The position numbers and the translations under genes were made by a program. Below, piece by piece: positions 2,047-61,465 of a stretch of DNA of 64,000 bases; within the stretch, counting starts at the first letter, position 1, and each line of letters begins with the position of its first letter. A model generated the notes under the pieces. The model ran no database searches and was not told the DNA's origin. It saw only the letters and a program-made list of their open reading frames with translations. Source of the DNA: Owenia fusiformis (lineage: Eukaryota); contig CAIIXF020000001.1 in NCBI GenBank assembly GCA_903813345.2, positions 1,178,001 to 1,242,000 of the forward strand. The letters run 5' to 3'.

Positions 2047-4231
2047 CATCTGCGTTATTGATTCAGGTCATACTTTAAATTAAAAGATTATATATTTTTT
2101 CATATTTTTTCCTACAAAATGGCTATGAAAAATGCTCCAAAAGTAACTTTTGCACTTATCAAAAGTAATACAACTTTGTAAATCCAAAGACTATACTATT
2201 ATATTCCATAATTAATAACATATTTGGATAAGATATAAGGATCCAAATGATGCAAATGGATTTTGACAGACACAAAATGTTTAAATGATTTAGCATCTAC
2301 ACCTCTACACTTCATGATTGAATATTGACCCTAATAAATGGCCCATTCATCAATACAGTGCTGAATATAGATCAACAAGATACTAGTGTACATATAAATG
2401 TAATAATAAAAGCAATATTCATTTTGAAAAATTAGATGAATTAATTTTTCTTCATGGGGAAATCATAATGGAGCATGCACTAGATCCTTTGCTTGGCATA
2501 TTGTGTGGTAACTATACAAACATGGTTGATTTACGATAAACTTTTGAAAATGATTATACTGATCAATTATTTAGGATGGATTCAAAGCTTTTGGCTATCA
2601 ACTAATGGAATACAGTTTGCCCATTTGGCAATGGACTGCATGCCAATATATAATTGTGCCATCATGTTTATAACAATAGTCATGAACCTTGTATTTTTCT
2701 GTCTGGCCTTTCATTCTGAAACAACTTTAATTAAAATGTTTTTTGAATGAATGAAAGCTACTGATTGATTTCTAATCATTTCTGGCCAGAAATATACAAG
2801 AGAGTAAGAACTCACTCTGGCTTTTACATATAGTGTATGCACCCTCAGATGTATAGCCTGTATAGTGTATGGTTCATTCCTTAAAGTGATCACATAAAGA
2901 AACATTTTAATTTAATACTTAATATTAATATTTAATATTAGAGCCACATGCAGGCAGATTTCTGATTTTTGAATTCATGTTTTGCTTAATAATCAACCAA
3001 TAAAGGACCACAATACAATTTTGAGGAAGAACATACAAATGTGTTACAAAAACCAAACTTCTGTATATCTTAGTAACAAATTACATCCTGTATATGGAGT
3101 AAAACTGTGATCTCTTGTAATGTAGAGCTTTTCAACCATGATAATTATGAAGCCATGCTTTGAGAATAACATGACAGAGAAGCATCCATTTGTTAGCTCA
3201 ACCTTAATCTAAAATATACATGATTTTACTGTGATTTAGAAATTCCACTTGTTCTGTCATCTTAATAAATATAAATCTTTAAAATACAAGATGTACAAAT
3301 GTTCTCACCTTGTTCAGTTCTCATATGTGTAATAATGAACTAGCATCTAAACCAATTCTGCTACTATGCACACTACACTGAGGCTCACAAGCATATTAAT
3401 TGATTTCTTATTCAGCAGTTCACTGACCAATACAGTCTCCTTGATTATATTTTGCATGAACATACAGCACTTCAGTACAATATAGATTTTTTATCTTATA
3501 AATCCAATAGAGGAGTTTTTAAATAGCTTTGAAATCTTACTAATTCTCATTTTTTCATCAGATTTTAAGAGATTTGCGCTTTTTACCTCTACTTTTAACT
3601 CCAATAATAGCTTTGGATTATCAGTTATGTCATTTGAATAATTTTTCCATGACATTTTAAAAAAACTTGGGCAAAATCTCCATTGACGCAATGCTAAAAT
3701 TCATTAAAACCTTGGCTTATTCATATGACAACCCACATTTTCATGTTTAATCACAATATGTACATTGACAGGGTCATCCAATAGTATGCCATTCGAGTTT
3801 CAGACAGATTCAACCAACACTTTTTTGATAAATCATGAAATTAAGTGACTATTGCAATTTTCTATCATACATAGAAGTGAATGGAGGTCTGGCCCAAGAA
3901 AATCAAAGACAAACGAGGGTGACATCTATTATGTCAGCGTTATTCAGCTATTTAGAAACTATACAATGATCATAATTGGTAGGATGAAAGCAGGTTTATT
4001 CAAAGATTTGTAAAACGAGAAAGTTAGTAAACAGGTTGATGATTCTCTTCATGAGTATTTCTATGAATCCAATTGCTAATATTAATGAATTGGGTGATGT
4101 TTTGTAACAGTATTCCGTGAATGTTTACAAATTATTTGAGTCTTTAAAACTACCCATTTTGGAAAGAACAATGTTGCGGTGGCTCAAACTGTTTTAATTT
4201 AACATTGTCAAAATATGTTTTAAGTCTTATA

Positions 4232-5263
4232 TCACAGTTTCATAAAGTCTTCAAATTTCATGAATTTGTATCCAATTCCATTTAGTCTTGACACTGGACT
4301 ACCATTGAAATATTCTACATTGAACTCTGGGTGTTTCTTGGTGTCCTCTAGAATCTGCTTGAATGCAGTTACATGAACCACCTCATTGTTTGGAACATTA
4401 TACACATCACCTTTCACTTGGTAATTTGAAAAGAAATAGTTTGAGTTGTTTTTAGGGGTTTCTTTCATGATAAGTGTCCCTCCTTTATGGCGTGTTGAAC
4501 CATTGATGTATTCAACATAATTCATGTCAATTCCTAGGAGCAAGATCTTCTCATATCCTAAGTATTGTCCAATCCTCGCAGCTAAAGCTCCTGTTGAGAT
4601 TTCACGAGTCACTTTTACCATATTTTGGTCACTGGCTGCTTTAATGTTTTCATAAAATTTTACTTTCGGATGAGATTTCAGTTGAGGTTCTTTCTTGGCA
4701 ATATTTGATCGAGTAAAAAAGAGTTTCATGCCACGTTTTTCAGAGTTTTCAATCATATCCATTAGCTCCGGGATGTGTGCGATGTTAACAACAGTATCAA
4801 ATGATGCATAATATGTCGGCCACCAATCAATCTGTTTCCAATATCTAAAGGCTAAGTTCATTCCTAAGGTATCCACTCCTTTAGTCTTGAAGAAGTCAAA
4901 TCCCTTCAGTGACGGCCCATTTCCAAATACAATAAGTTTCTTTTGTGGGCGACACTTTTCCCTGTATCCAAAACACCACAGGGAGCACTGGTGATATTGC
5001 GGTCTATCCTTGGTGCCTTCTATACATGACTGAGTATCATTGTTTCTGCACCAGCCACATTCGTTAGCACTTTGACACTGTTTTTGGTTTACTATAGATT
5101 CACATATACTAGTTCTAGTGAAGCGTCTTGAATTGTCGGATTGAGCACTGTGAACTGTACTTGGTAGCTCTCTTCCATAAAGTACATAGAAACCTAGTCT
5201 TAGAGCTAATATTCCTATCACTATGACTATGAAATATCGGATTGCTTGCGACTTATAACTCAT
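4232..5263 (-). CDS. Type II membrane glycosyltransferase-like protein, copy 1 (343 aa): TM anchor + PSI-like Cys-rich module + GT42/DUF115(Maf/MptE-like) catalytic domain
   Basis: Uninterrupted ORF. The first ATG (5261-5263) gives MSYKSQAIRY followed by hydrophobic FIVIVIGILALRLGFYVLY. The module ICESIV..CQSANECGWC..CIEG..CSLWCF..C has 8 Cys. Catalytic motifs IVFGNGPSLK, GMN, YYASFD, ISTG, LGYEKILLLGIDMNY, NYFFSNY and NGSPVSRL parallel CstII GNGPSLK / ITSG / LGYKEIYLSGIDFY. The ORF track's 5308 start is a non-ATG codon. Confidence 0.85.
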   Translation of the reverse strand: MSYKSQAIRYFIVIVIGILALRLGFYVLYGRELPSTVHSAQSDNSRRFTRTSICESIVNQKQCQSANECGWCRNNDTQSCIEGTKDRPQYHQCSLWCFGYREKCRPQKKLIVFGNGPSLKGFDFFKTKGVDTLGMNLAFRYWKQIDWWPTYYASFDTVVNIAHIPELMDMIENSEKRGMKLFFTRSNIAKKEPQLKSHPKVKFYENIKAASDQNMVKVTREISTGALAARIGQYLGYEKILLLGIDMNYVEYINGSTRHKGGTLIMKETPKNNSNYFFSNYQVKGDVYNVPNNEVVHVTAFKQILEDTKKHPEFNVEYFNGSPVSRLNGIGYKFMKFEDFMKL

Positions 5264-8200
5264 TATTTCTGTCTTTATATTTTGGTCGTCTTCTACCTGC
5301 TTCCACAAAGCTTTTATGAAGTTGATAATATTATCTTCTGATAGACTGGTTCTAATGAGATGATGTTCATAAGTTGATGCATTTAGGCTGCTTCTTTATG
5401 TTGCTGTTGATCTAAAAGTACATCAGGTACAGGTTCAAGTCAATTTAATCATGCTTATATATATTATTTAATCAAATGCTCAATGCTTATGACGTACAAA
5501 AGGTAGCTTCTAATACCCTTTCACAAAAAGTCATTTCGCCATAATTTTTACAAAATATTTTGATTTTGAACGATGCGAATTATGATAATATGGCTTTTCA
5601 CTTTTGGCAATAGACTAATGGAATACAGTTTGCCTATTAGGTAATGTGATGAATGCCAATATAATTGTACCATCGTGTTTATAACAATAGTCATGAGTCC
5701 TAGGATGAACCATGTATTTTTCTGTCTGACCCATCAATCTGACACAACTTGAATCAAATTGTTGTTTTTTGAATGAATGAAAGCTCCCGCTTGATTTTTT
5801 AATTATTTCTGGCCAGAAATATTTTTTAACAAGAGAGTTAGGACCAACACTGGCTAGTATATGGTTCATCATACTTGAAAGTAAATCACCTTTAGAAACA
5901 TGGTGTTTTCCCATGAGTTATGTGTGTTATTGCATATTTGATCCTATTATATCTAATACCCCTGGCATAGTCCCAGCTCGAAATGTATGATGTACATGTA
6001 TATACTGATTTAATGTTAGAACCACATGCAAGCAATCTTAACAGTATTTTGGATTGTGTTTTGCTAAAATAATCAACCAATAAAGGACCACAGTGTGCAA
6101 TTTTAAGGCAGATCTGCATGATGAGTTTTTTTGCAATTTTGAAAAGAGGACTGCTGAAATTTTAGTTATTTATGCATTCTAAAAAACAATTAACACTCAA
6201 TTATTAATCTGGGTACGCTAAAGCACCCTTTGTACGTGCAAAAATGAAAGATTTATAACATGTTTGGAATGAGTTATGTTCATCTGAAAAAAGCACATGG
6301 TCATCAAAATTGTAGAAAGTACAGTCTGACCTTAAGGAGGAAAATACAAACATGTTATAAAAACCAAACTTCTGTATACAAATTAGAATATGCAATAAAA
6401 TTGTGATCTCTTGTAATTCAGAGTTTCGAGTCAATCATGATAATTCTGATGCCATGCTTATGAGAATAACATGACAGAGAGAAGCATGATATATATAACT
6501 GAGGCCACACATTTGTTAGCCTCACCTTGATCTAAAATATTTGTGATGACCCACAAATATGTTAAATATCCTACACTTAGCTTATACATACCAAAAATTA
6601 TGTCAGATGTGATACATAAATGTATTTATTGAGCAAAATGGTTACATCCTATCTCTAATTTCACTGCTATCTGAGGGGTAAAATTGTCTAAAAATCATTT
6701 TTTGGGCGGGTTTTGGCACTTCTATAATTTTCTGTCAGTGTGTCAATGTTTATTTCAAACCTGTCAGTTATGACCAGATTGGGACAGGCTTTACAATGGT
6801 ATGAAGAATATAACATATACAAAATGACATCCTTGGCTTAGAGGAAAATGTATTACATTGTTTTATAGCAAATCGTAATTTATGACATAATTCAATGGAA
6901 AAAATCACCTCTGTATCAGATGCTGGCACACTTTTGCCGGAGGTTTGCAAGAAGTAACTTTTGGCAATGCAGTATGTTAGAGTAACCTAGTAGGTGTAAG
7001 AAAATATAAGGTGATGGGCTTTAAAGTGGTAAAAACAATTTTCACAGCCGAATTGGACTTCAATTCCTAAGATTTCAGGGGGTACTATAAGATTATTTCA
7101 TAACTTAAAGGATATATTTGTGATTGTTCTGCTTTCTACAGCACACATTACTAGTCCAGAGATGAATAATATCCTAAAGTTATAGGCTGATATCTGTATT
7201 AGTCTCAGAAATATTGCAACTCAGTGAGTTTGTGAGACAATCTAGTTAAGCATTGCTGACTTTTTTAGATTTTCATCTAATTTTTTTAATTTCCCACTAG
7301 TACTATGTATGCCATTTGCCTCTAAGAATTTAGTAATATCATACAAAATTTTGAAAATGTTATGACTGATAAAGGACCATGCACTTTTTTTCTTTACAAA
7401 GGGTAGTGATTTAGATTTGTATTTTTTTATTTGAAATTGAACTGACTGGTCCAGTGATTACTTTGTTTTAGCAAAGTTCAACTGTGCTTTATAGAGATTT
7501 ATAAAGCATAAAATCATCTATTATCTATTATATGGACATCAGATCATAATCAAATTCCACTTGTTCTGCCATCTTATTACCTAAAATTCAAGTTGTACAA
7601 ATTTGGGTAAAACTTCATATTCTTACCTTATTCAGATCCTAATATGTGTAATAATGAACTAACATCTTATTCTAAATCAATTCTGCTACAATGCACACTA
7701 TACTGGCTCGCATGCATATTAATTATTTATTTTTCAGCAGTACAATCAATTGACCGATCAATACAGCCTCTTTAATTATTGTGCATGAACATACAGCACC
7801 TCAGTACAATATAGATCTTTTATCTTATAAATATCCAATTAGCATGATTGTTTGGATGATATAACAAACTCGAGTTGGTCAGTTGTATTTCTTATGTTTG
7901 CTTACATAATTAGATGGTTAAGGTCAGTTGTATTTCTTATGTTTGCTTACATAATTGGATTATTTAGAGCAAGTATATCAAGCTATTACCAGTTAGTCAT
8001 TTTGACAAACGTTCATTTTGTTGAAGCATTCATAAAACATTCATTGTGCAGTGAATCAATAGCTTTGTCATTGTCATAGGGTGGGGGGGGCGGGTGTATA
8101 GGGGGTCTTGGAAATTCATATACAATATGTTTCAGCTCTCTTATACCATATACAATATTTTTTCACCCCTTTTATACCATATACAATAATTTTCACAGCT

Positions 8201-9149: not shown

Positions 9150-10822
9150 AAGGACCATGGATGGTATTGCAACAGATTTCAGTCATATGTTGGATTTTGG
9201 CTATTTTCTGAGGATTTTAACAGATGCATGTGTCAGGCCATCATTAACTCCAGGACAAGCAGCCAAAGAGATGATAAAATAATTTGGACTGTAAGACAGG
9301 GAGGGTGCAAACACCCAACCAACATGTTTTTTCTGTAATGTTGTCCTGATTTCCAATCTTTTAAAGAGGCTCTATTCCATAGGATAGCACAATCAAGACG
9401 CCTCTGGACTTTTTGCATATTGAGTTTCACCACATATTTACCCATATACTTGCCAGAAAAGAAATTCCAAAATCCCCCTCTTTCAGTGTAAATTTTGCGA
9501 TTGTGCTGGCCTTTCTAATCATTTTCAAAGAAATTAACTCAATCTGAAGTTTGAATATACCGGGAAAGTCCTCCTGTTATCTGATTGGTCGTTGAATTTG
9601 TTTATCATAAACCTGATTGGCTGCCTGGTTCAAGGCGCTTGTGGGCGCTTGTGTGACTCAATGGGGATTCCCCTCGCTAGCCGAGGAATAGATTGTGTTT
9701 AATTCTGGAGTTTGGTTGTTCTGTTGATTATTTCCGATATTTCATCAATAATATACCCAAAAGTTATTCTCAAGATATATCCATGGTATGTGAGATATTA
9801 TATGAGCAATAACAATAGGACATCATAGATTGTCTGGGGGAGAAACCTATGGCATAATGCATCTTTAAACATCTGTTTTTTCAATATTTGTTGCATTAAG
9901 GGGCGGGGTCAAAATATCGATGTTCCTATGGAGACGAAAGTACTTTCGCGAGGGGGGGAGGGGGTTTTTGGGCACTTTCCTTGACCAAAAAAACATCGAT
10001 AATTCAGATCTGATATACAAAAAATAATTGGACTTACCCACTTTTTCTGGCGCTATGTTCTGATAAAAAGGCTTGTTTTCAATAGTTCGTGAGCTTTTTT
10101 GTGTGATAGGTCCAAAATATCGGTAGATAAAGACGATAATTCGATCATTTTTCAAATAAATTCCGTACTTTTCCCTCCCCCTTTTGAAGAGTTCAATGCA
10201 GTTAAATTGCGAACGTGTGTTAATTCACCGTAATCATTTGACAGTCACTGAAAATCAATGTTTTTTTGAAGTGACCTAAGCTTTCGTCTAGAGGGGGGGT
10301 GGGGGGGTTGTCCAAACGAAATTACTTTCGTCTCCATATGAACATTGATATTTTGACCCCACCCCTAACATGTTGTGTTTTGAGACACAGTTAACATCTT
10401 TAAAGGAAAATATGATTCATGCTGAGGTTTTAAAGATATCAATTTTGGGTGACTAAAATTAAGCTGAAAACAATATATCACATGAGTTTTCCCTATGTGA
10501 AAATAACATAAGGAATATTGTTTTTCACGTTATCCAAATGAATCATATTTCCTTTAAATAGGTTGACTATTTCTAAACATGCAACATATTGATGCACCAA
10601 ACATTGAAAAAAACATATGTGAAAAGGGCAACATTTCAGAAAATCGTTTATTGGGTGTTTGCACCTTCCCTGTCTCAAAGTCCAAATCATTTTATCACCT
10701 CTATGAGTGCTTGATTTGGTTAATGCAATGACCTAACATATGCACTTGTTCAAATCTCCAATCAATAGCTGAAATCCAACATGACAGTTTGAAATCAGTT
10801 GCGATACCTTCCGTGGTCCTTT
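9150..10822. mobile_element. Degenerate non-autonomous DNA transposon with long TIRs (Kolobok-like termini); related sequence at about 31500-33160
   Basis: AAGGACCATGGATGGTATTGCAAC at 9150 is the inverse of GTTGCGATACCTTCCGTGGTCCTT ending near 10821; inverted similarity extends about 180 bp. Confidence 0.55.
9900..10365. mobile_element. PIF/Harbinger-type MITE nested in the previous element
   Basis: About 50-bp TIRs GGGGCGGGGTCAAAATATCGATGTTC..GGAGACGAAAGTA / TACTTTCGTCTCC..GATATTTTGACCCCACCCC; 3-bp TSD TAA on both sides. Confidence 0.85.
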
Positions 10823-10827
10823 CTTTG

Positions 10828-11956
10828 ATTATCCCACCGAACGAAGTTCAAGAGGGATATAGGAAACCGTCCGTCCGTTCGTCCATCCGTCTGTTTGTCC
10901 GGGCGATAACTCAAATACCGTTTCACGGATTTGATTCAAATTTTATAGGCTTATGCCTTATGGGTGTAGGACCTCTGCTCGAGAAGGAATTTTCAATATG
11001 GCCACTGAATTCAAAATGGCCGCCATTTTTCGTAAAAAATGTAATCTTTAATAACTCAAATAATAGTTTGCGGATTTGGTTCAAATTTTATATGCTGATG
11101 CCTAGGGACAAAGGAGTTTCGCACAAAAAGAGATTTTCAAGATGGCCGCTTAATTTCAAAATGGTGGCCATTTTTCGTAAAAATATGTAATCTTTGATAA
11201 CTCAAATACCAGTGAACAGATTTGGTTCAAATTTTATATGGTGATGCTTAGGGACACAGTTACTATGTTTGACAAAACATTTTCAAGATGGCCACTTAAT
11301 TTCAAAATGGCGGCAATTTTTCGTAAAAAACGTAATCTTTGATAACTCAAATACCAGTAAACAGATTTGGTTGAAATTTTATATGATTATGCCTATGCCT
11401 AATAATTTTCAAGATGGCGGCCCATATTCGTAAAAAACGTAATCTTTGATAACTCCTATACCAGTGAACGGATTTGGTTCAAATTTTATACGGAACGGAT
11501 TTGGTTCAAATTTTATATGATGATGCTTAGGGACACAGTAGCTATGTTCGACAAAACATTTTCAAGATTTCCACTTAATTTCAAAATGGCGGTAATTTTT
11601 CGTAAAAAACCTAATCTTTGATAACTCAAATACCAGTGAACAGATTTGGTTGAAATTTTATATGATTATGCCTAGGGACACAGTAGCTCTGTTCAAGAAA
11701 TAATTTTCAAGATGGCGGCTGAATTTCAAGATGGCGGCCCATATTTGTAAAAAACTTTATCTTTGATAACTCATATACCAGTGAACGGATTTGGTTCAAA
11801 TTTTATATGATGATGCCTAGTTCACAATGGTATAAACTAACTTTGTGCCAAATTTCATGCTTCTATCACAAAGTGCACGTCATTTCAACATTTTCACGCA
11901 TAATATGTTTTGTTCGGTGGGATTTGCTACTCCGTGGAGTTGCTGTTTTTCTAGTT
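10828..11956 (+). mobile_element. Helentron-associated non-autonomous element (HINE/DINE-like) with internal ~145-bp tandem repeats
   Basis: subTIRs ATCCCACCGAAC (10831-10842) / GTTCGGTGGGAT (11912-11923); (CCGT)n microsatellite; 6-7 repeats containing GATAACTCAAATACC and CAAGATGGC; 3' hairpin GCTACTCCGTGGAGTTGC. Confidence 0.8.
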
Positions 11957-13068
11957 AGTTTTAGGACCAAATAAACACCTTTTGCAATATAAGAATATCT
12001 AATGATGCTTGAATTAAATATACGCTGTATGAACACTTTATATTCAAATATTTTAATGATTTATCCCACATACCCCGAAACACACGTAGCTATAGTGACC
12101 ATATTTTTCATCAAAGTTGAGAAGAGTCAATGACATTTGGCATTCTTATTTGACACTGTATTTAACACCTCCTGTGAAAATTTGAATGAAAATGGAAAAA
12201 ACCTTTGAGAGTGATTTTCTCAAAACTTATTGATTGACATGGAATGTGGAACCAATTAGAGTGACTATACTCTTTCATGTTTTCCAACACGATGACAGTA
12301 AAAAGTCAGCACAATGGAGTTTTTCAGGGCACAATTTCTTCATAATTAGCCTTCAATTCTTTACCTTCTGGTGCCTTGAGATACCATATATTTTCTCTTA
12401 TACCATATACCATATTTTTTACACCTCTTATACCATGATAAAATTTGCCCCCTCTTATACAATATACAATAAATTTTCACCCTCTTATACGATATACAAT
12501 ATCCCCCCCCCCGTCATAGTAGCATCTGGTCTCAATGAATAATGTATAAAGCGAGCCCATGTGCCAATCAGATGATTTGCCTGGTTATCAGATCAAAAAA
12601 GGTCCATTGATACCAGTGTGAATTTGAATCAAACTTTTTGACATTAAGTAGAAAGGCAATTTTTCATGTGCATGTTCTGTACAAACCTTTACATTCATCA
12701 TTAATGAACTATTGCAGAGATGACATCTTTTAATACTCTGTCGAGTTTTTTGATTGACGATTCTGTAAAGAATACTGTTTACAGAAAAACAGCTTTGGTA
12801 CAAAACAAAATAATGAAAAATCTTTACAAAAGCTTTATTGAATCAGTTTATAAAGTAATATCAGAATAAATGCAAAATCATTGCAGATTCTTTGAGGGAA
12901 ATGTGTACTTTTGGAATTTGTATGCAGTCCTCATTGGAGTCACATGTTATTTTAAGGAATAGATAATAACCCATTTTATATATGGTCTTCATCTTTCATA
13001 TTTTCACAAAGAGTGCACTAAGGGACTTATTTAGGTCACTGAATTTTCTCATTTTTTTCAGCCGTATA

Positions 13069-14103
13069 TCACAGTTTCATAAAGTCTTCAAATTTCATGA
13101 ATTTGTATCCTATTCCATTTAGTCTTGACACTGGACTACCATTGAAATATTCTACATTGAACTCTGGGTGTTTCTTGGTGTCCTCTAGAATCTGCTTGAA
13201 TGCAGTTACGTGAACCACCTCATTGTTTGGAACATTATACACATCACCTTTCACTTGGTAATTTGAAAAGAAATAGTTTGAGTTGTTTTTAGGGGTTTCT
13301 TTCATGATAAGTGTCCCTCCTTTATGGCGTGTTGAACCATTGATGTATTCAACATAATTCATGTCAATTCCTAGGAGCAAAATCTTCTCATATCCTAAGT
13401 ATTGTCCAATCCTCGCAGCTAAAGCTCCTGTCGAGATCTCACGAGTCACTTTTACCATATTTTGGTCACTGGCTGCTTTAATGTTTTCATAAAATTTTAC
13501 TTTTGGATGATTTTTTAGTTGCGGATTTTCCTCAGCGATATTTGATCGAGTAAAAAATAGTTTCATGCCACGTTTTTCAGAGTTTTCAATCATATCCATT
13601 AGCTCCGGGATGTGTGCAATGTTAACAACAGTATCAAACGATGCATAATATGTCGGCCACCAATCAATCTGTTTCCAGTATCTAAAGGCTAAGTTCATTC
13701 CTAAGGTATCCACTCCTTTAGTCTTGAAGAAGTCAAATCCTTTCAGTGACGGCCCATTTCCAAACACAATAAGCTTCTTATATGAGCGACAATTTGCATC
13801 ATGGGGACTGAAACACCAGGAAGAACAATGGTGATTTTCTGCTCCATCTTTGGTACCTTCTACACACAATGGAGTGTCATTATTTGTGCACCAGCCGCAT
13901 TCCTGAGCACCCAGACACACTGTCTTGTGAACTATGGATTTACATATTCCTGCGGAGAATCTTAAACTGTCGGCCCTGAGAACCTTTTCAGGGGTTTTGA
14001 TTGATTCATCTTTTGGACCGAATAGTAAATACGACGCAAAGTTCAGTCCAAGTATTACTGCTAGCCCTGCTAGGAAATATTTTGTTTTCTTTGTCATTTT
14101 CAT
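13069..14103 (-). CDS. Type II membrane glycosyltransferase-like protein, copy 2 (344 aa), paralog of 4232-5263
   Basis: Uninterrupted ORF: basic tail MKMTKKTKY, TM segment FLAGLAVILGLNFASYLLF, the same 8 Cys, and a catalytic domain differing from copy 1 at only 4 of 236 residues. Confidence 0.87.
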   Translation of the reverse strand: MKMTKKTKYFLAGLAVILGLNFASYLLFGPKDESIKTPEKVLRADSLRFSAGICKSIVHKTVCLGAQECGWCTNNDTPLCVEGTKDGAENHHCSSWCFSPHDANCRSYKKLIVFGNGPSLKGFDFFKTKGVDTLGMNLAFRYWKQIDWWPTYYASFDTVVNIAHIPELMDMIENSEKRGMKLFFTRSNIAEENPQLKNHPKVKFYENIKAASDQNMVKVTREISTGALAARIGQYLGYEKILLLGIDMNYVEYINGSTRHKGGTLIMKETPKNNSNYFFSNYQVKGDVYNVPNNEVVHVTAFKQILEDTKKHPEFNVEYFNGSPVSRLNGIGYKFMKFEDFMKL

Positions 14104-23192: not shown

Positions 23193-24055
23193 CAGAGATC
23201 ACGGTAGAGGTTCGCCATTCGCCAATCGCGAATTTTCGAAAGAGGTGGCGAAAAATATGTAAAGGTATTTCGCAGTTATGGCGAATTAGAGGTGTCACGG
23301 TTTCCCGATATTGGACCAAATTTCGAGTTCGGGACATGGGACAGAAAGGGTTAATATCGGTTCATAGATTCCTTCCCTAAAATGCATAAAAACGTGTATA
23401 AATAGCGAGGAACACCTCCGATTTCGTTCTGAAAAATTAAATATTTTCACTTACCTCGTACCTAGATTACACTTCTTTGCATTGAAAAGTGTTATTAACG
23501 GACCCGCGATTTCAGGTAGATGGTAATACTTGTTCGTAAATTTCTTCATCGTCGTTCGCAAATCGAGTGCATCATCAGTATGCAGGATGTAGGAAAGAAA
23601 TTGAAAAATCGAGCCGGCATCTAAGTCGAAAAAGTCGCCAGTTTGGAAGTATTTTGGGACTCCGATATGACAAGGTAAACGAATTGGTGATATCACACCA
23701 TGCAGACTATGTGAAATGCCGATCACATTCGCGGCAGATGCTTTACATTCAATTTTAATTGACGTTTTTTTATTTCTGAATAAGATTTTGAAAAGTGAAA
23801 CTGAAAGTGAAACTGTCATCATCAGACATTGCACCATTTTTAATGTTCTGTCCCGTCCCGTCCCGAAAGTACCGTGTCGAGACCATTTGTACCGTTCCGT
23901 ACCGTACGGAAATTTTCTTGGACCGTGACACCTCTATTGCGAATTCCCTTTTTACGGTTTTTCAAAATGGCTAATTCATATTTTAGTTGGCTAAAAAAAT
24001 TTTGGAAGATTTAGCCACAATGGCTAACAAGTTTTTTCAACTATCGTGATCTCTG
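23193..24055. mobile_element. hAT-type MITE (outer) in a syntenin intron
   Basis: TIRs CAGAGATCACGGTAG / CTATCGTGATCTCTG; perfect 8-bp TSD CTAGACGC (23185-23192, 24056-24063). Confidence 0.9.
23287..23936. mobile_element. hAT-type MITE (inner, nested)
   Basis: TIRs TAGAGGTGTCACGGT / ACCGTGACACCTCTA; 8-bp TSD TGGCGAAT / TTGCGAAT (1 mismatch). Confidence 0.88.
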
Positions 24056-24458
24056 CTAGACGCCGTCACAAAAAATTTGGAAACTATAACAATATCTCAT
24101 TTCTTGCATTGTGACAAAAAATTAACAGTTTTTCACATGAAAGTCTAAATGATAAATTTTAATTAGTATTCACTTCCTAACATTTCATAAAATGTAATTG
24201 TAGGGGTACTCTTAATTATAGCATGTCATTTGATTTTTGTAGATTAAAGTAGTAAATAACTGGATTTACTTTCAAAATCATTAGCAGTTAAATGGATAAA
24301 TTAATTTAACATTTAAAAATCAAAATGTAATTACATGGTGAATTATCCATGTTCTACCGGATGATCCAAAAAAGCAGAACTATTTATTCAGAAGAACAGA
24401 TTCCTGGGTTCTGTTTTCTTGGGCCACCCTGTATATAACTTGGAAAACTTAAACATAC

Positions 24459-24630
24459 CTTAAGTCCAACACAGTTCTGTCCATTCACCTCCACAAGATG
24501 GTGCTCAGTTAGGACGCCATTCCTAGCGGCAGACGAATCCTTGACCAAGGAGTTGATTTTACCATTCTTGAATACAAATCCAATGGTGCCACCACTATCT
24601 TTATGCATTGTGATGGTTCGCTCAAATGGT
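24459..24630 (-). CDS. SDCBP: Syntenin-1 coding exon 4 (PDZ2)
   Basis: [57 protein letters not shown]; 172 nt; donor gtatgt. Confidence 0.95.
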
Positions 24631-24734
24631 CTAAAAACAAGGTGGTTATATTGTAATATCTGAATACATTTTGACATATTTTATAACAATCACATATTAA
24701 TCCAGTGTAAAAGATTAGGAGGTTAATTCTGTCT

Positions 24735-24855
24735 GTTCGCTGTTCAAATTGAGAGGTGTTCTCATTACAATGCAAAGAAAAAATGGGACTGAAAAAAGTG
24801 TTCAGATAGGAAGTTGTTCGGGTTAGCCAGGTGTTCAGATATACAGGTTCTACTG
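24735..24855 (-). mobile_element. Tc1/mariner(pogo)-like MITE fragment (TA-CAGTAGAACCTG family; relatives near 18876, 21527, 42765, 62210)
   Basis: Terminus TACAGTAGAACCTGTATATCTGAACACC on the minus strand, with repeated GAACAC motifs. Confidence 0.65.
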
Positions 24856-24858
24856 TAC

Positions 24859-25034
24859 CTGTCTCTAATTGCCATGGTGATTTTCTGTGGTTCACATTTC
24901 TTCAGATACTTGTGTGCCTTATCATTGTCCCAGCCTGCCACTGTCTGGTCATTGATCTGCAGGATTTGATCCCCAAACCTTACACCAGCCAGAGAGGCTG
25001 GAGAATTAGCATGCACAAAGGCAACAAATAAACC
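24859..25034 (-). CDS. SDCBP: Syntenin-1 coding exon 3 (PDZ1)
   Basis: GLFVAFVHANSPASLAGVRFGDQILQIND...MAIRDR; 176 nt, ends in phase 2. Confidence 0.93.
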
Positions 25035-25303
25035 CTGAAATCACAAAATAAAATTAAAGGTATTTATCAATTTCACTATAACAAATTAGCTTCTATCATG
25101 ATCAATCTAAGTTGTATTAATTTCTCAGTATGTTTACACTATTTGGACTGACAATTCCATTTTCATTAGAAATTTTATATTGTGATATCACATATTAACA
25201 CTAAATTGGTGTCATTGTAGTTTGAATGAGGCTTCATAAAAGTACAGTTGTATATCATGATGAAGTATATTTTACAAGAAAAGATGAAATGTATGCCACC
25301 TAC

Positions 25304-25675
25304 TTTGTTAACATGTCGGACTCTTAGTCCAATCATTCCACTCTGATCTTTACACAGCTGCACAAATCTAATCCCATCCTTAATTTCCGCACGTCGCAAT
25401 CCAACGTCATTGCCTGTTACTGGCGCAACTTGCATCTGACCAGCTCCCGTTACACGTCCATACGCAGGAACAGCTACCTGCTGATTCTGATTGGCAGCGA
25501 CAACAGGCATGTTCTGTGCGATACATTCAGGGCTGAGGGAGAGACCCATGTAGTCCTGGAGAGAGGGGTATAAAGATGACCCCCCAGCAGCAGCAGCTGT
25601 GGGGTAGGTCTGGGCTGCCTCTCCAGGGTACTGCACAGCAGGCTGCTGGGCTGCTTGCTGGTATTGAACCTGGGC
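25304..25675 (-). CDS. SDCBP: Syntenin-1 coding exon 2 (N-terminal region and start of PDZ1)
   Basis: 372 nt, phase 0/0; contains [34 protein letters not shown] and [13 protein letters not shown]; canonical AG/GT boundaries. Confidence 0.93.
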
Positions 25676-26160
25676 CTGAAAATAAAATACTATTTTTTAC
25701 TTTTATCAACAACCAAAGAAATCAATATAGGTGAATCCACACTAAAGCAGATATCAACAAATGAATCATTGAAGTAAACAGTGATACATAGTCACACTCA
25801 AGGTTTGACCTCCTTCATTCTTATCACACATAAAATGACTACAGATATATAGTAAATAAACAAATAACTCTGATTTTACATAATGCTAGTACTGGGACTT
25901 TGTATGATTCACTTCTGTATGACTACCTTACATCCTGCATTCATTGTACAATTTAGACATTCAAACATATACACTTATATATAATGTATATTAAAATTCA
26001 CTGTAAAAGTAACACAAGGATTTCTTTGTGATATCTCCCTATATAAGCTAACGACCTTTCTATAGGATAACACCATGCTATAGGATAATGCCCCTGCTAC
26101 TTGTATAGGATACGCCTGTCCCTTGCTATAGGATAATACCCCTACTATGAAATAACATAC

Positions 26161-32968: not shown

Positions 32969-33320
32969 GTTTGCATCTTCCCTGTCTCAAAGTCGAACTT
33001 ATTTTATCATCTCTGTGAGGGCTTTCCTTGGAGATGATGCATTGGCCAACGGACTTTTCTTCAGGTCCGTGATTGGCCTAACATATGTACCTGTTTAAAT
33101 CCTCAGAAAATAGCCAAATCAAACATATTACTGGCCGAAATCTGTTGCGATTATTTCCCTCATCCTTTTGCAAAATTTGAGCAAAGGGTAAAATCATAGC
33201 AACTTTGGCAACATTTTAGCAAATTTGGCTAAATTTCACCAAATCCACCAGTATGTCTCCGAAATATTTTTGGGCGGGAAATATTATAACCCCCACCCCC
33301 CCCCCCCCCCCCCCCCCCCT

Positions 33321-36055
33321 TTATGCTAATGGTAATACACATATGAAAAACATCTTCCTATGTGGTGACTTCAACTTACCAGACATCGATTGGGAGAATG
33401 GAACTATAAGGCCTAATTCTCAATATTCTAATGCTCTTAATGAGAAGATGATTACAATAACTGATGATCATGGCCTAACCCAACTAGTCAAGGAACCAAC
33501 TAGACAAAATAACATCCTTGACTTAGTATTCACTACATGCCCAAACCTCGCAGAAAGAATCTCGGTGGTTCCGGGCATGAGTGATCACGAGGCAGTCCTA
33601 TGTGATATAAACCTAAAAATGAAAATTCAGAAAAAGAAGCCTCGTAAGGTCCACATATACAAGCGGGCAGAATGGACTGGACTTAAAGAGGCTCTACGAT
33701 CTAAGTTCAGCGAATTCAAAGAGAACTGTGAAAGTAGATCAGTTGAAGACAACTGGTCCTCCTTCAAATCTACATTAATATCGTCAATCAATGAGCATAT
33801 TCCAAGTAAAACTCTAAGTGGGAAATTCAAAGTACCCTGGATTACCACCAGGATACTGAGAATGATCCGACAGAAACAAAGACGATATAATGTTGCCAAA
33901 CGTTCAAATGAACCTCATCATTGGCATAAGTACAAATCACTACGGAAATTAATCCATAGTGAAATTCGTAAAGAACATCAGCGCTACATCAACGATCTGC
34001 TTGACATTGATGAAAGCGAAATCATAAATGAGAATGTTCAGCACAAAGGTATTACCAAACGCTTCTGGAGCTACATAAAGTCTAAACGCAAAGATGCATC
34101 AGGTATCAGCGTGCTGCGTAACAAAGATGGCGACGAAATAACAGACGCCGCCCAGAAAGCAAACATCCTCAATGACCAATACAATTCTGTATTCACAGAT
34201 GAGGATGCCACTCTACCGACAATGGTACCTAGTCAAATTCCTGAAATGCCAAATATCAAAATTTCGACAAAAGGAATTCACAAATTGCTAACTGGCCTGA
34301 ATCCATCAAAAGCCACTGGACCCGATCTTATTCCGACTAGGGTCCTGAAGGAATGCAGTGACAGCATATCACCATTCCTTCAAATAATTTTTCAACAGTC
34401 TATCGATGAAGGCTTAGTGCCTTTGGACTGGAAACATGCCAATGTTACTGCTATCTATAAAAAGGGACGAAGAGATGAGGCTGTGAATTACAGGCCTGTA
34501 TCTCTGACGTCAGTTCCATGTAAAATAATGGAACATATTATATTCCATCATGTTATGGCCCACTTTGACCTCTATGAAATTCTAGTAAAATTCCAACATG
34601 GATTCAGGTCAAAGCACTCATGTGAAACACAACTTGTCAATACAATAGAGAATATAGCTCGGGCCCTCGACAACAATAAACAAACAGACATGTTGGTATT
34701 AGACTTTTCCAAAGCGTTTGACACGGTGGCTCACGAACGCCTCTTGCTCAAACTCGACTATTATGGAATTCGCAATAATAACTTGAACTGGTTCAGATCC
34801 TGGCTTGTGGGAAGATCACAACAGGTAGTGCTCGATGGTGAATCAAGTTCAAAAACTCCAGTAAAATCAGGAGTTCCTCAAGGAACAGTTCTTGGACCAC
34901 TCTGTTTCCTTGTTTATATCAATGATATGGGCAATAACCTATCATCCTCAGCCAGTCTTAAGCTTTTTGCCGATGACAGCCTTTTATTCATGACAGTCGA
35001 AAGCAAGCAAGATGCATTAACACTACAGGAGAATCTCGATAAACTGGTCTCCTGGGCATCAACATGGCAAATGAAATTCCATCCATCAAAATGCTATGTG
35101 CTAAATATTCACAAAGGTAAATCCCTATCATGCACAATTACACCATGCTAGGGGAAAACCTTAAGTCGGTAACACACATCCCATACCTAGGAATTGACAT
35201 CACAAATAACTTACGCTGGACTACACATATTCAAACTATTGTATCCAAAGCCAATAAGGTGCTTGGATTTCTCAGGCGCAACCTCCATCAATGCCCTGAA
35301 AAAGTGAAGGCTCAGGCGTATAAGTCACTAGTCCGGCCTAATTTAGAGTATGCCAGCTCGGCATGGGATCCATACCGACAAAAAGATATTGATATGTTGG
35401 AACAGGTACAGAGAAGAGCAGCCAGGTTTGTAACCAAATGTCACTCAAGGGAACCAGGCTGCGTCACCAAAGCTCTTCAAGACCTACAGTGGGAGCCACT
35501 GAAGGAGCGTCGAGAGGCTGCTAGAGTTTTCCTTTTCTACAAAGGAAAGCAGAACCTAGCAGCCATCGACGTGCCTCCATACTCCCGCCAACAGATCAAT
35601 ACCAACACTAGGTTGTATCATCCTTCTAAGTTCATACAACCATCAGCTAGAACGGATGCATACAAATTTAGCTATTTCCCTAGGACAATAGCTAAATGGA
35701 ACACTCTACCTGGTGACATCTTAGACTGTGACAGTCTAAGTAGTTTTAAATCATCATACTATGCCTATGTCAATAACTGCAATTAAATAGGTGTGTTTTT
35801 AATATAGATCTATGTTTTAATGTAAAGGGTCCCCAGTGCACAGCAACAAGCCTGCACTACTGGTAAAAGGGGGTGATGTCAACGCGGTTAGCCTGACAGT
35901 CTCCCCAGGTAAAATGAGTTGTAAACCATAGATCTATTTTTAAATGTTAAGGTTTTAAATTATATTCTATTCAAATTCTATCACTGTTAAATTATATATC
36001 TGCTTCATATGGGCTTATTAGCCTTTTGCAGATTATTGACATAGACATAGACATA
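33321..36055 (+). mobile_element. 5'-truncated CR1/L2-group LINE (partial APE endonuclease + reverse transcriptase) with one frameshift
   Basis: GDFNLPDIDW and SDH endonuclease motifs; NYRPVSLTS, QHGFR, LDFSKAFD, GVPQGTVLGP and LFADD RT motifs; frameshift near 35125 into ORF 35130-35786 (WDPY, VQRRAARFV, FPRTIAKWNTLP); 3' stem-loop and (GACATA)3 tail at 36038-36055. Confidence 0.95.
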
Positions 36056-36313: not shown

Positions 36314-37809
36314 CATTTAGAATCATATTTTTTACAAAATTGCACCAGTTTTTGTTTAGAATTGTGAAGAATATTCATGAGGAATTGTCAACTTTTGTAT
36401 TTACTCTTGATGACCTCACTGCACTGACAGTGTCTGTCTGCAATCTATTCTGCATTCTGCAATCATTCTGTTAATTTAACATGTTCACACCCAAGGACCC
36501 TGACAAGGGTACCGCCTGTTGTCTAAATGGCGGCTACAGGTTTGTTATGGATTCTATTTTCATAACAGGAACTGAACAGGAACAGAAAAATCTGTAAAAG
36601 AAGAAGTAGTCCTACAGATGTCGACTCGCTATTTTATACATGTTCCCGGGGCCTATGGATAAGACCCCTTTTCCTGTGGCCTGGCTCATATGGTTAAATA
36701 TCTTCTACTATCGAAATAAAGGCTTTAGTTTTACTGATCAAATTATGACACAGGACAGCGGATACTGAATAAATGACAACGATAAATGTGGGTCAAATGT
36801 GCTATAAAATCGAGATGACAGGGGTATCTATCTTTAAGGACAACTGTAACGTTTCTAGATCATGTTGTCATTTTCCTATGTTCCAATGCAATACATCCAC
36901 CACATTCCATTGTCACATCTTACCATGAATTGTTGTCTCTGTGATTATTTGAAATTCGAATTCCGTTGTCATTGACGATATGGAGGATGGTGTATTGTGG
37001 TGATTCAGTCTATATTTGACTGAAATTGGGATTTCATTTAAAGTCCATTTCACTGTTTAACTGCGTCAGTAAAAGCTAAAAAATAAGAAATCAAAATATC
37101 ATTTTGCAATAATATATAGAAAAATATATTCCTATTGTACATGAATGACATTTGTATATCTTGGATTGCTTCTAGTTTGGCTTATAAAGTGTGTGGCCTC
37201 TTATATTTGGATGCTTCTCTGCCATGTTATTTTCAATAAGCTTAACATGGCTGAAATTCTTCAAATTACAAGACAGCACAGGCTTATTGCACAAAAAACT
37301 AAAAAATCTGAGATATACAAATGTCATTCATGTACAATATGAATATAATTTTCCATATATTATTGCACAATGGTCTCCCATTTTCTTATTTTTGCCGTTC
37401 TACTGACGCAATGAAGCAGTGAAATGGACTCTAATTCAACAATCACAAGAGCTTGATAAAATAAAAGCGACAGTTACGTCCACCATTTATGACAGTGGTA
37501 TCTGACTTTGCCCTTGTCAGGGTGTTCTGTTGTGAAGTTCATGTCGTCACGAAATATTATCAAGGGTTTATGAGAGTGTAACTTGCTTTCTGCAATCCAA
37601 GAAGGAGTATTAGGTGCCACATAATGGTATTTACAATGATTTATTACATATTATAAGAAGTGAAATTTTGGTCCTTTATAGGGTTCTTAAGGCGTCCTCA
37701 CATTCAGTTCATTTTTTTTTTCTTTTCAATATACATTGTAGTTTATTTCAGTTTCTAAGTACAGATACAGTAGTAGTAAATCAATTACAATCTTATCATA
37801 TTCCAGTTG

Positions 37810-38255
37810 TTTCGGCATTCTAGGATGGGGAGAAGGGCCTTTGTTGGGAATGGCACCTTCTGGCTCATGAGTAAAAACTGACACAAATTGGTCATTGAGC
37901 ACCTCTGCCTTGGCTTTACTTGAGCTGAATGTTGTGCCATCACGCTTCAAAGGGGCCACACCTGAGTTGTCACATTTCTTGGACTTAATAAAGCTAAAGA
38001 AGCATTTGTTACAACCGTCACCCACCAAGCCATCCAAATAGGTGTTATATGCTTTTTTGCATTCTCGCTTAGACTTGTTCTTCACTGAACGATAATAGTT
38101 CCAGTCCTGCGAGCGTTTGGATTTCCGGGCACGGTTGTATGCACGCTTCTTCCGATGTGATAGCTGTTTCACAGTTGTTGTTATCCAGGGCTGGTCAAAG
38201 CGTGACGACGTCATCTTAGATGGTACGCTCTTTGCCATAAAGCGGTTACAAGCTT
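37810..38255 (-). mobile_element. Internal fragment of a related CR1/L2-group LINE
   Basis: PWITTTVKQL..KKRAYNRA..FFSFIKSKKCDNSGVAPLK..KAEVLNDQFVSVFT aligns by eye with the EN-RT linker of the 33.3-kb LINE. Confidence 0.85.
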
Positions 38256-38259
38256 CAAA

Positions 38260-38560
38260 ATTCCTTCAAAATTCCGTTTTATTCCATTATTTAATTCTTG
38301 AATGTATGCTTTATATATCACAAATGTTACAATACTAATAAAATAGTTCAAAAATGCAGTCTGGTTATCATTTCCATTATATCCTATTATCAACTTTCTA
38401 CATGTTATCTTTAAACCGCATGTTATCTTTAAACTCACATTCAGTTCATTATTTTTTCTCAAGGAGTCTATCAGATTTCTCACTGAAATTAGATGAAATC
38501 AAAAGTCGATTTACTACAAGATCCTTATTCAAAATCTGAAAAAACTTGCACTTAGAGAAA
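38260..38560 (-). mobile_element. Possible degenerate L1/Tx1-like ORF2 C-terminal fragment
   Basis: LIIGY..FLNYFISIVTFVIYK resembles the post-zinc-knuckle segment of Tx1/L1 ORF2; weak. Confidence 0.35.
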
Positions 38561-60544: not shown

Positions 60545-61465
60545 TTTTTATTTATTTATTTAGATATACACTTTTTTAACAGTGGCACTCTTACATTAAG
60601 GTGCATCTAATCGAAAGTATCCACAATGCCATGTTGGTTAAAAACAGAACCTTTTATCAAACTAAAATGAGTCTTAAAAAGAATTAAAACATTAGGTATG
60701 TTAATATTTACTTAAAATCTTATTTAAAAAGCTTTTTACTAAAGAGTCGAATAAAACACCATATTCGTGCCCCCCAAAGATGTATGCCTCATCTCCCAGT
60801 AACCATTTCAATTTTGTGTCAGTTGGGGCGCTAAAGAATATCCCTGTTAAATGTATGGGAATTTTATCCTCAAGTATTTTATAAAATTTGGATCTTTCCC
60901 CTGCAAAATTAGAACAAAATAGTAATCTATGTTCTATGTTCTCTTCTATATCAGGGCAAAAATCACAGAATGGGCTATTAACTTGTACATTTGCCCATTT
61001 ATATGTTTCACCTTTAAGACCTAGTTTCCCGGTCCGAGCAAGAAATTTTAATCGTGCACTTGCAAAATCAAAAGCATTTCTTAAATAGTACTGTAAACCT
61101 TTATGTTTAAGATCAATAAGCTGTCTATACAGTGTCAAGGAAGACTTTCCGTTCATTTCAGTTTGTATCTCAGAGTCGCATGTCTTCTGAATAGAAGGTT
61201 CATAATTTTCTATCAAAGTATTTAAGTTATTGTCAATGCCTTTAAGGTCAATCAGTTTAAAGATATCATTTATGTGCTCGACATATTTCCAACTATTTGA
61301 TTTGTTACATGCAAATCGTTCTTGCATTCTTGTTAGTAGTAATCTTATGAATGACCCCTGATCAAGAGTCTGTAAATGGAGAAAATATTGGATTTGTCGC
61401 TTGAGGACTATGTACTTAATTGGTGTCCAACCAAGTTCATTAATGATAGCAACATATGCAGGGGT
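60545..61465 (-). mobile_element. 3' fragment of a non-LTR retrotransposon (post-RT region with zinc knuckle)
   Basis: ELGWTPI upstream; SLTLYRQL, LKFLARTGKLGL and CDFC..EENIEHRLLFC in ORF 60701-61327; (AAAT)n-like tail on the minus strand near 60545-60562. Confidence 0.8.

Follow-up and report, generated by a model that had tools for sequence, protein, structure and literature searches.

The window, a stretch of 64,000 nucleotides of the Owenia fusiformis genome, carries two related genes on its minus strand, each encoding a predicted membrane-anchored transferase in which a cysteine-rich module stands between the anchor and the catalytic domain. Their features are as follows.

4232..5263, minus strand: copy 1, an intronless open reading frame of 343 amino acids with a type II layout (anchor, stem, PSI-like module and GT42/CstII-like domain)
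5180..5236, minus strand: signal-anchor of copy 1, residues 10-28, with basic residues N-terminal of the anchor
5105..5179, minus strand: variable stem of copy 1, residues 29-53, judged from the dN/dS of anchor plus stem and from the anchor-to-CGWC distance
4952..5104, minus strand: predicted PSI-fold disulfide module of copy 1, residues 54-104, with 8 cysteines and 1 N-glycosylation sequon (N75)
4235..4939, minus strand: catalytic domain of copy 1, residues 109-343, GT42/CstII- and Maf-like (PF01973 and family profile) and free of cysteine
5412..7626, minus strand: spliced 5′ untranslated region (UTR) intron of copy 1, GT..AG, with the joint 5411-7627
7627..7767, minus strand: non-coding first exon of copy 1, placed by RNA depth and molecule ends, its 5′ end approximate
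13069..14103, minus strand: copy 2, an intronless paralogue of 344 amino acids, with a catalytic part apparently homogenised with that of copy 1 and a diverged N-terminal half
13789..13944, minus strand: predicted PSI-fold module of copy 2, with 8 cysteines (Pfam PSI E 0.052, 14.3 bits)

Copy 1 is transcribed, with a stranded RNA depth of 63-126 across 4001-5203 in three runs; some reads across the module carry letters of the neighbouring copy, so their assignment to copy 1 is incomplete; what is specific to copy 1 in the RNA is its upstream exon and its 3′ flank. The joint 5411-7627 is spanned by 7, 6 and 20 reads in the three runs, RNA depth in the bin 7610-8010 is 4-20, and molecule ends pile up at 7767 in one run. 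The first exon is only 77% alike to the equivalent stretch upstream of the neighbouring copy. No splice joint lies inside the coding sequence of copy 1 among the joints listed for the three RNA runs, and the reading frame runs unbroken from the anchor to the stop codon, which bears out the original prediction that the module and the catalytic domain are joined without an intron. Four residues separate the end of the module from the first strand of the catalytic domain. An alternative joint, 5413-7670, and a length variant of a 42-base tandem repeat at 5350-5391 in the 5′ UTR (13, 7 and 36 reads) were also seen at copy 1. The module of copy 2 is hardly covered by RNA (depth 2.5-4.7 in the bin 13625-14025).

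The catalytic domains of copies 1 and 2 are identical at 231 of 235 residues and their anchor and stem at 15 of 55, and dS between the copies is 1.39 in the module versus 0.13 in the catalytic domain. This pattern suggests gene conversion that homogenised the enzyme part only and ends near codon 110-120. The apparent conversion tract over the catalytic domain, 13069-13770 against 4232-4930, is interrupted by a 60-base patch at codons ~181-200 (48/60 identical).

Genome-wide, the catalytic domain has nine matches, every one a single open frame: three are on contig C1, of which one lies just before the window, two each on C3 and C6, and one each on C5 and C10. Eight carry the module and one, L009, does not. 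The nine transferases form one clade (100/98-100/99). Contamination was considered and is ruled out by the chromosome-scale contigs, the spliced transcript and the presence of paralogues on at least four contigs. All nine have a single N-terminal hydrophobic stretch preceded by basic residues and none later; in copy 1 the anchor has a mean hydropathy of 2.38 and a preceding net charge of +2, and later hydrophobic stretches all reach 0.89 or less. This type II layout is that of Golgi enzymes, and sequons occur in all copies. The lumenal or extracellular placement that had been proposed thus agrees with the topology predicted from the distribution of charges in all nine copies, and we consider it highly probable that the disulfides of the module form in the lumen. 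The stretch that precedes the catalytic domain of L009 (G000:C10:21067919-21068638) is similar to the central part of the L004/L005 module (5/7 residues) and, judged by its sequence, may be the remnant of a deleted module.

Copy 1 has exactly eight cysteines in the whole protein, at residues 54, 63, 69, 72, 80, 93, 97 and 104, and the spacing in copies 1 and 2 is 8-5-2-7-12-3-6/7. The eight cysteines predicted for both paralogues were recovered at 4952-5104 in copy 1 and 13789-13944 in copy 2; the likeness of the two modules was put slightly too high at about 60%, the count being 28 of 52 columns (54%). Across the eight module-bearing paralogues, which are 27-98% identical to copy 1, all 8 cysteines are invariant, together with one glycine and one tryptophan and nothing else; the tryptophan of CGWC is present in seven modules and is replaced by phenylalanine in L007. 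The module cysteine count is even in all eight copies (8 or 10), in seven copies CGWC is the only CxxC, and L003 and L008 have extra cysteines in the stem. With paralogue pairs of saturated dS omitted, dN/dS in the module is 0.17-0.60 (16 of 21 pairs computable), compared with 0.44-0.92 in anchor plus stem and 0.07-0.25 in the catalytic domain. The module gives no sign of positive selection, every value being 0.60 or less. The distance from the anchor to CGWC varies from 40 to 98 residues among paralogues.

The module very probably adopts a PSI fold. A model built from the eight worm sequences alone (pLDDT 83.1) combines a short helix with a hairpin and one further strand; a model of the whole protein from a single sequence (pLDDT 36.7) was of no use. 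Among 48,161 solved chains, 25 match the module model at Z≥2, and 20 of these, including all of the top 13, bear a PSI domain, the PSI ranges in the matched chains being assigned partly by titles and partly from recall. PSI domains (PF01437) of Met (1ssl/5lsp), plexin A2 (3okt/5l74), integrin beta3 and SEMA4D (1olz) match at Z 3.0-4.7 with an rmsd of 1.8-4.0 Å over 39-53 residues, among them plexin A2 at Z 4.5 (3.2 over 52) and Met at Z 3.6 (1.9 over 39). In a second structural comparison, all 20 matches listed are plexin, Met or integrin beta chains. These matches are weak in absolute terms, with no Z of 5 or more, and Foldseek returned no row at E≤0.001 for the module model in either PDB or BFVD. 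A PSI-like fold is nevertheless what the model predicts, as the original prediction had anticipated.

At the level of sequence, the PSI scan of the cysteine-rich segment proposed earlier gives a divided answer: Pfam PSI (PF01437, gathering 23.1 bits) matches 3 of the 8 members, all below the cut-off (best E 0.0053) and copy 1 not among them, and the modules are absent from the 22 genome-wide PF01437 matches. PSI domains are reported to have six invariant cysteines and a conserved tryptophan (10.1101/2023.12.02.569716). Mapped by spacing, the invariant cysteines correspond to C54, C63, C69, C72, C80 and C93, all kept in 8/8 copies. At the position of canonical C2 there is no cysteine in any of the eight copies, and a WC-x6/7-C pair stands in place of C2-C8. 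The claimed PSI pattern therefore holds for the fold, the six core cysteines, the tryptophan of CGWC and the linker position beside a larger domain, but not for the canonical eight, as C2 is absent and an extra cysteine follows the last tryptophan. The module also differs in belonging to a type II enzyme rather than to a type I receptor. Among host repeats it is closer to those that we class as attractin/MEGF8-type than to the plexin/semaphorin type (hhalign 95.6-96.6% versus 62.4%), in keeping with the attractin-like character noted originally. Searches of PDB sequences gave chance-level rows only, both with phmmer for the whole protein and with the module profile, a PDB sequence search with a host attractin-type exon found no attractin/MEGF8 chain, and ESM Atlas yielded no usable match to the worm module. 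On its predicted structure, the module so appears to be a divergent PSI fold outside Pfam PSI membership.

The catalytic domain of copy 1 matches PF01973 at E 3.3e-5, below the cut-off; in a family of 61 sequences, PF01973 is found in 49 and CST-I in 23. A profile of these 61 sequences matches 9 sialyltransferase chains among CstII/CstI structures (E 2.7e-13 to 9e-11), the alignment being confined to two short stretches, GNGPS and TG..A..LGY..I.LLGID. Residues N115, P117, N136, G225, G244, D246 and Y249 are invariant or nearly so in the family and match the GT42/CstII motifs, namely the GNGPS nucleotide-binding loop, an Asn, (S/T)G and GID..Y. H297, conserved in at least 90% of the sequences, lies outside the CstII-aligned stretches; it may be the counterpart of the catalytic histidine base of CstII. 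Campylobacter CstII/CstI (GT42) and Maf (PF01973), the latter a domain reported to be related to GT42 (10.1101/2020.06.03.131540), thus share the GNGPS and GID stretches with the worm enzymes and differ elsewhere, with neither anchor nor cysteine module in the relatives.

Relatives of the catalytic domain number 1,237 at E≤0.001, the best 150 of them listed, and come from bacteria, phages and giant viruses. Neither an anchor nor the CGWC module was found in the 160 non-worm relatives examined; one of them (P0073) has four scattered cysteines and no CGWC. In three transferase trees (115, 42 and 54 rows), the worm clade falls in a polytomy with viral, unlabelled and bacterial rows, and neither its sister group nor the order of L008, L009 and the rest is separated. 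Single-protein scans of viral contigs found no locus with the catalytic domain and one with P0037. The transferase domain was also seen as a stand-alone gene on two viral contigs of 22-25 kb (L048 and L087); these, like the loci from the single-protein scans, presumably resemble small polinton/virophage-type elements.

The fused form was not found outside the worm in the proteins, viral contigs or cassette loci searched. A DNA pattern for a fused module and GNGPS gene, with its first codons fixed and hence not exhaustive, gave 0 matches on viral contigs; the module was found in none of 8,331 open reading frames (ORFs) of 95 cassette loci, and the transferase domain in none of 737 ORFs of 19 loci around viral module genes. 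The impression that this architecture is unfamiliar among glycosyltransferases is thus borne out, the combination of anchor, PSI fold and GT42-like domain not having been found beyond the worm in these searches. A literature search covering few subscription journals found no account of the architecture or of the sugar cassette described below in Owenia, and 10.1101/2025.04.19.649669 does not mention ‘Owenia’ in its main text. POMGnT1 has the same order of anchor, folded stem domain and catalytic domain, but its stem has an unrelated, FAM3-like fold for which glycan binding was demonstrated (PMC9802357).

The transferase on contig C5 belongs to a putative sugar cassette.

G000:C5:13911043-13924704, one strand: CMP-synthetase-SDR fusion (L088, 475 amino acids), 2-hydroxyacid dehydrogenase (L092, 329 amino acids) and transferase (L008, 382 amino acids), consecutive annotated genes, all intronless

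The synthetase-SDR fusion is the sole CTP_transf_3 (PF02348) match in the genome and lies 11 kb from L008, with the 2-hydroxyacid dehydrogenase between them; a decayed retroelement piece lies between L092 and L008. The same fusion is present at 8/15 viral loci and at 6/80 loci from metagenomes (the six with a GC of 0.22-0.35); in bacteria, 5 of 15 loci have a synthetase and a dehydrogenase close to the transferase, as separate genes. A dehydrogenase insertion of 12-20 residues is common to the worm and 6 of 11 viral rows and is found in none of five named bacteria. The dehydrogenase trees (56 and then 30 of 95 rows) left out duplicates, two thirds of the high-GC metagenome rows and four long branches; under a mixture model and with the insert removed, the worm falls on the viral side of the split (SH-aLRT 99), as sister to the sampled viral group and not within it. 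The top identity of the worm dehydrogenase, 55-57%, is to a bacterial-type row. In the synthetase tree (41 rows) the worm lies among viral rows (80/92), and the worm synthetase is 57% identical to a giant-virus bin versus 37-42% to named bacteria. Predicted pathways for Kdo and for CMP-sugars are reported from giant viruses (PMC9614988).

A giant-virus-related donor of the cassette is likely, and the C5 locus is the probable founder locus of giant-virus type. The description of the enzyme as bacterial-type is accordingly in doubt on the donor side, as the cassette that adjoins the most divergent paralogue, L008, is of giant-virus type. An exon-wise search of the worm genome did not find NeuB, a result that does not prove absence; the HpcH-type aldolase of phage loci was not found with the one query used, and a PF03328 match was seen on contig C11.

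For the module, too, we favour a viral origin. In a search of BFVD with the module model, 15 of the 16 top rows are named giant-virus proteins, and the top ten have a probability of 1.00 and TMq of 0.62-0.72 (best E 0.002); BFVD holds predicted viral models and PDB solved chains, so host attractin/MEGF8 PSI repeats are not in this comparison. P0167 (E 1.7) is the sole outside match of the module profile among 5.8 billion proteins, and its gene adjoins topoisomerase II on a giant-virus bin; ESM Atlas returned three unnamed Nucleocytoviricota clusters at 0.81-0.82 for P0167, a lead only. Viral contigs scanned for the motif yielded 19 loci. With out-of-frame loci (L100, L103 and L110), a 26-residue fragment (L105) and a duplicate (L115) dropped, 15 distinct ORFs of 106-180 amino acids remain, in each of which a hydrophobic stretch at the N terminus (read by eye) is followed by a short stem and the module. 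Small Nucleocytoviricota membrane proteins of this kind (BFVD W5S4L6 of Pithovirus, A0A7D3QUP1 of Fadolivirus and A0A1V0SH27 of Hokovirus, P0167 and L098-L116) share with the worm proteins the anchor, the stem, the module and the lack of C2, and with L008 an extra cysteine pair; they differ in ending in a short, often basic (Arg-rich) tail and in having no transferase domain. The viral family (L098-L116, L216, L217 and P0167) is widespread and unnamed, and a Pfam PSI row was obtained for 0 of the 15 scanned. A search for further viral kin with residues 28-92 of P0171 gave no candidate.

The motif CxxCxxCG[WFY]C, which was not a component of the viral scan pattern, is present in 16 of 16 viral modules (P0167 included), in 0 of 22 host PSI matches and in one of the eight worm modules, that of L008. 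The most divergent worm paralogue thus carries the viral cysteine pattern; the extra pair is absent from the other seven worm modules, including copies 1 and 2, and also from the viral L216 and L217. On the module profile the best viral ORFs score 35.8 and 34.4 bits and host PSI exons at most 21.1; because the viral set was gathered with a pattern from the worm module and P0167, this comparison favours the viral set. Two of seven virus records with the dehydrogenase also carry a module gene. The proposal that a eukaryotic module had been joined to a bacterial domain is therefore doubtful, as the giant-virus family of anchor plus module matches equally well or better (hhalign 97.4%; Foldseek probability 1.00).

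The module could instead be a host PSI repeat of an attractin/MEGF8-like worm gene, captured by exon shuffling or retroposition before a horizontally acquired transferase, with the viral likeness reflecting the viral proteins’ own descent from eukaryotic PSI repeats; we consider this rather unlikely. The top scorers on the module profile among the 22 host PSI matches are exons that we class, by our own label, as attractin/MEGF8-type. A profile of hand-picked host exons of this type outscores the viral profile in raw bits in 5 of the 8 worm modules, where 0-20 of 300 shuffles reach the scores, both profile sets having been chosen with the worm module known. Copy 1 scores 27.5 bits on the viral profile (null 8.5) and 33.2 on the host profile (null 14.2), and 0 of 300 shuffles with its cysteines, tryptophans and CG[WF]C core fixed match its score on either. 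The deeper paralogues reverse the order, with viral and host scores of 29.4 and 25.3 for L006, 31.9 and 20.4 for L007, and 21.4 and 9.8 for L008. Since hhalign gives the host attractin-type exons 96.6% over 54 columns, against the 97.4% of the viral family, the profile scores, as a comparison of sequences, do not separate a viral from a host attractin-type origin.

Host exons L035, L037 and L038 run in the same register as the module from C6 to the last tryptophan, and copy 1, with C1-x8-C3-x5-C4, has the same spacing as the host repeats apart from the lost C2. Yet the C2 pattern is kept in 20 of 22 host PSI matches and absent from every worm module, no host match has the cysteine pattern of L008 and the viruses, and module queries found no host gene outside the transferase family. 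Many host matches, moreover, are partial and cut at exon ends, whereas the module is intronless with its anchor. The exons L035, L037 and L038 (G000:C1:31051983, C4:9774895 and C4:9732415) are themselves of note as complete 8-Cys PSI exons beside EGF-like exons that fall below the Pfam cut-off and belong to an unnamed family.

We propose that the module is a PSI-fold knot in the lumenal stem of lineage-specific type II Golgi-style GT42/CstII/Maf transferases, which would be made of giant-virus parts and in which the knot would serve as a pedestal; we put the probability of this explanation as a whole at about 0.55. A giant-virus-type sugar cassette would have been taken up by the worm, and the half comprising anchor, stem and module would most likely have come from small giant-virus membrane proteins of the same layout, the two viral-type genes having fused either in the virus or in the worm. 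The fused gene would then have acquired a 5′ UTR that is spliced, and multiplied to nine copies on at least four chromosomes. In the lumen, homology with the PSI domains of Met and plexin predicts the pairs C54-C69, C63-C80 and C72-C93, the connectivity reported for Met PSI being C1-C4, C3-C6 and C5-C7 (10.1101/2023.12.02.569716), and C97-C104 would be a fourth pair, probably closing a local loop. The knot would form a stiff pedestal, resistant to proteases, on which the microbial enzyme, itself free of cysteine, is held and oriented above the membrane, much as PSI domains are described as linkers that orient domains, stalk and head, in Met and SEMA4D (10.1101/2023.12.02.569716). The putative activity of the enzyme would be to transfer a CMP-activated 2-keto sugar acid, supplied by the C5 cassette, to a glycan.

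On our analysis we lean towards a mainly structural role for the module over one in recognition, because its invariant columns are only cysteine, glycine and tryptophan, its constraint is intermediate and L009 lacks it. The viral kin of the module occur without the catalytic partner. A role in binding an acceptor or partner, in which faster divergence of the module would retarget paralogues with near-identical catalytic domains, seems unlikely. It would fit the 231 of 235 identical catalytic residues against 28 of 52 module columns in copies 1 and 2 and the end of conversion near codon 110-120, and a folded glycan-binding stem has a precedent (PMC9802357); the stop in conversion, however, can be explained by prior divergence of the N-terminal halves, and both the lack of a sign of positive selection and the few invariant columns speak against such a role.

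Oligomerisation, or retention in a Golgi sub-compartment, is the less probable still. The module adjoins the anchor, as retention signals of Golgi transferases commonly do, and the extra stem cysteines of L003 and L008 could link chains; against this, the even number of module cysteines in all eight copies leaves none spare for an inter-chain bond, and L009 lacks the module. That the cysteines bind metal on the cytosolic side, the PSI likeness being superficial, is very improbable: the CxxC pairs in L008 and the viral kin and the weak Pfam rows of viral modules, to zinc-ribbon or Fe-S models and in every case far under the cut-off, would suit it, but the type II charge distribution in 9/9 copies, the sequons in all copies, the single CxxC of seven copies and a fold list full of PSI chains speak against it.

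A broader proposal is tentative: an annelid may have domesticated a giant-virus sugar island made up of a CMP-ulosonate synthetase-SDR fusion, a dehydrogenase and a GT42-like transferase, a second viral gene supplying anchor and knot may have made the transferase Golgi-type, and glycans may be capped with a sialic-acid-like keto sugar acid. If true, this would be a capping route without NeuB or GT29 in a lineage reported to have no sialic acid supply. An alternative acidic cap would be unexpected there, because Lophotrochozoa are reported to have lost both supply routes (PMC5811610). If the viral reading holds, the family would be a rare animal case of a giant-virus glycosylation cassette that was kept, expressed and amplified, and a record of a soluble microbial enzyme refitted for the secretory pathway. 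An uncharacterised CMP-keto-acid pathway becomes testable in a laboratory animal model with analysable glycans, and a widespread, unnamed family of giant-virus membrane proteins is tied to the PSI fold. The PSI-like proteins of Pandoravirus cluster 12 likewise have a divergent membrane-bound PSI-like domain outside a receptor, but with a signal peptide and a C-terminal anchor (type I), another cysteine spacing and no enzyme, and their homologues were reported in pandoraviruses only (10.1101/2023.12.02.569716).

Elsewhere in the window, the minus-strand gene at 23451-25696 has introns and PDZ-like exons and is an ordinary animal neighbour, presumably syntenin. LINE-type reverse transcriptase and endonuclease frames lie in pieces at 33220-35786 (plus strand), 37726-38265 (minus strand) and 60701-61483 (minus strand). 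The stretch at 10818-12020 is repeat-derived and highly covered, with a strong, plus-strand-biased RNA signal and a very high contig depth.
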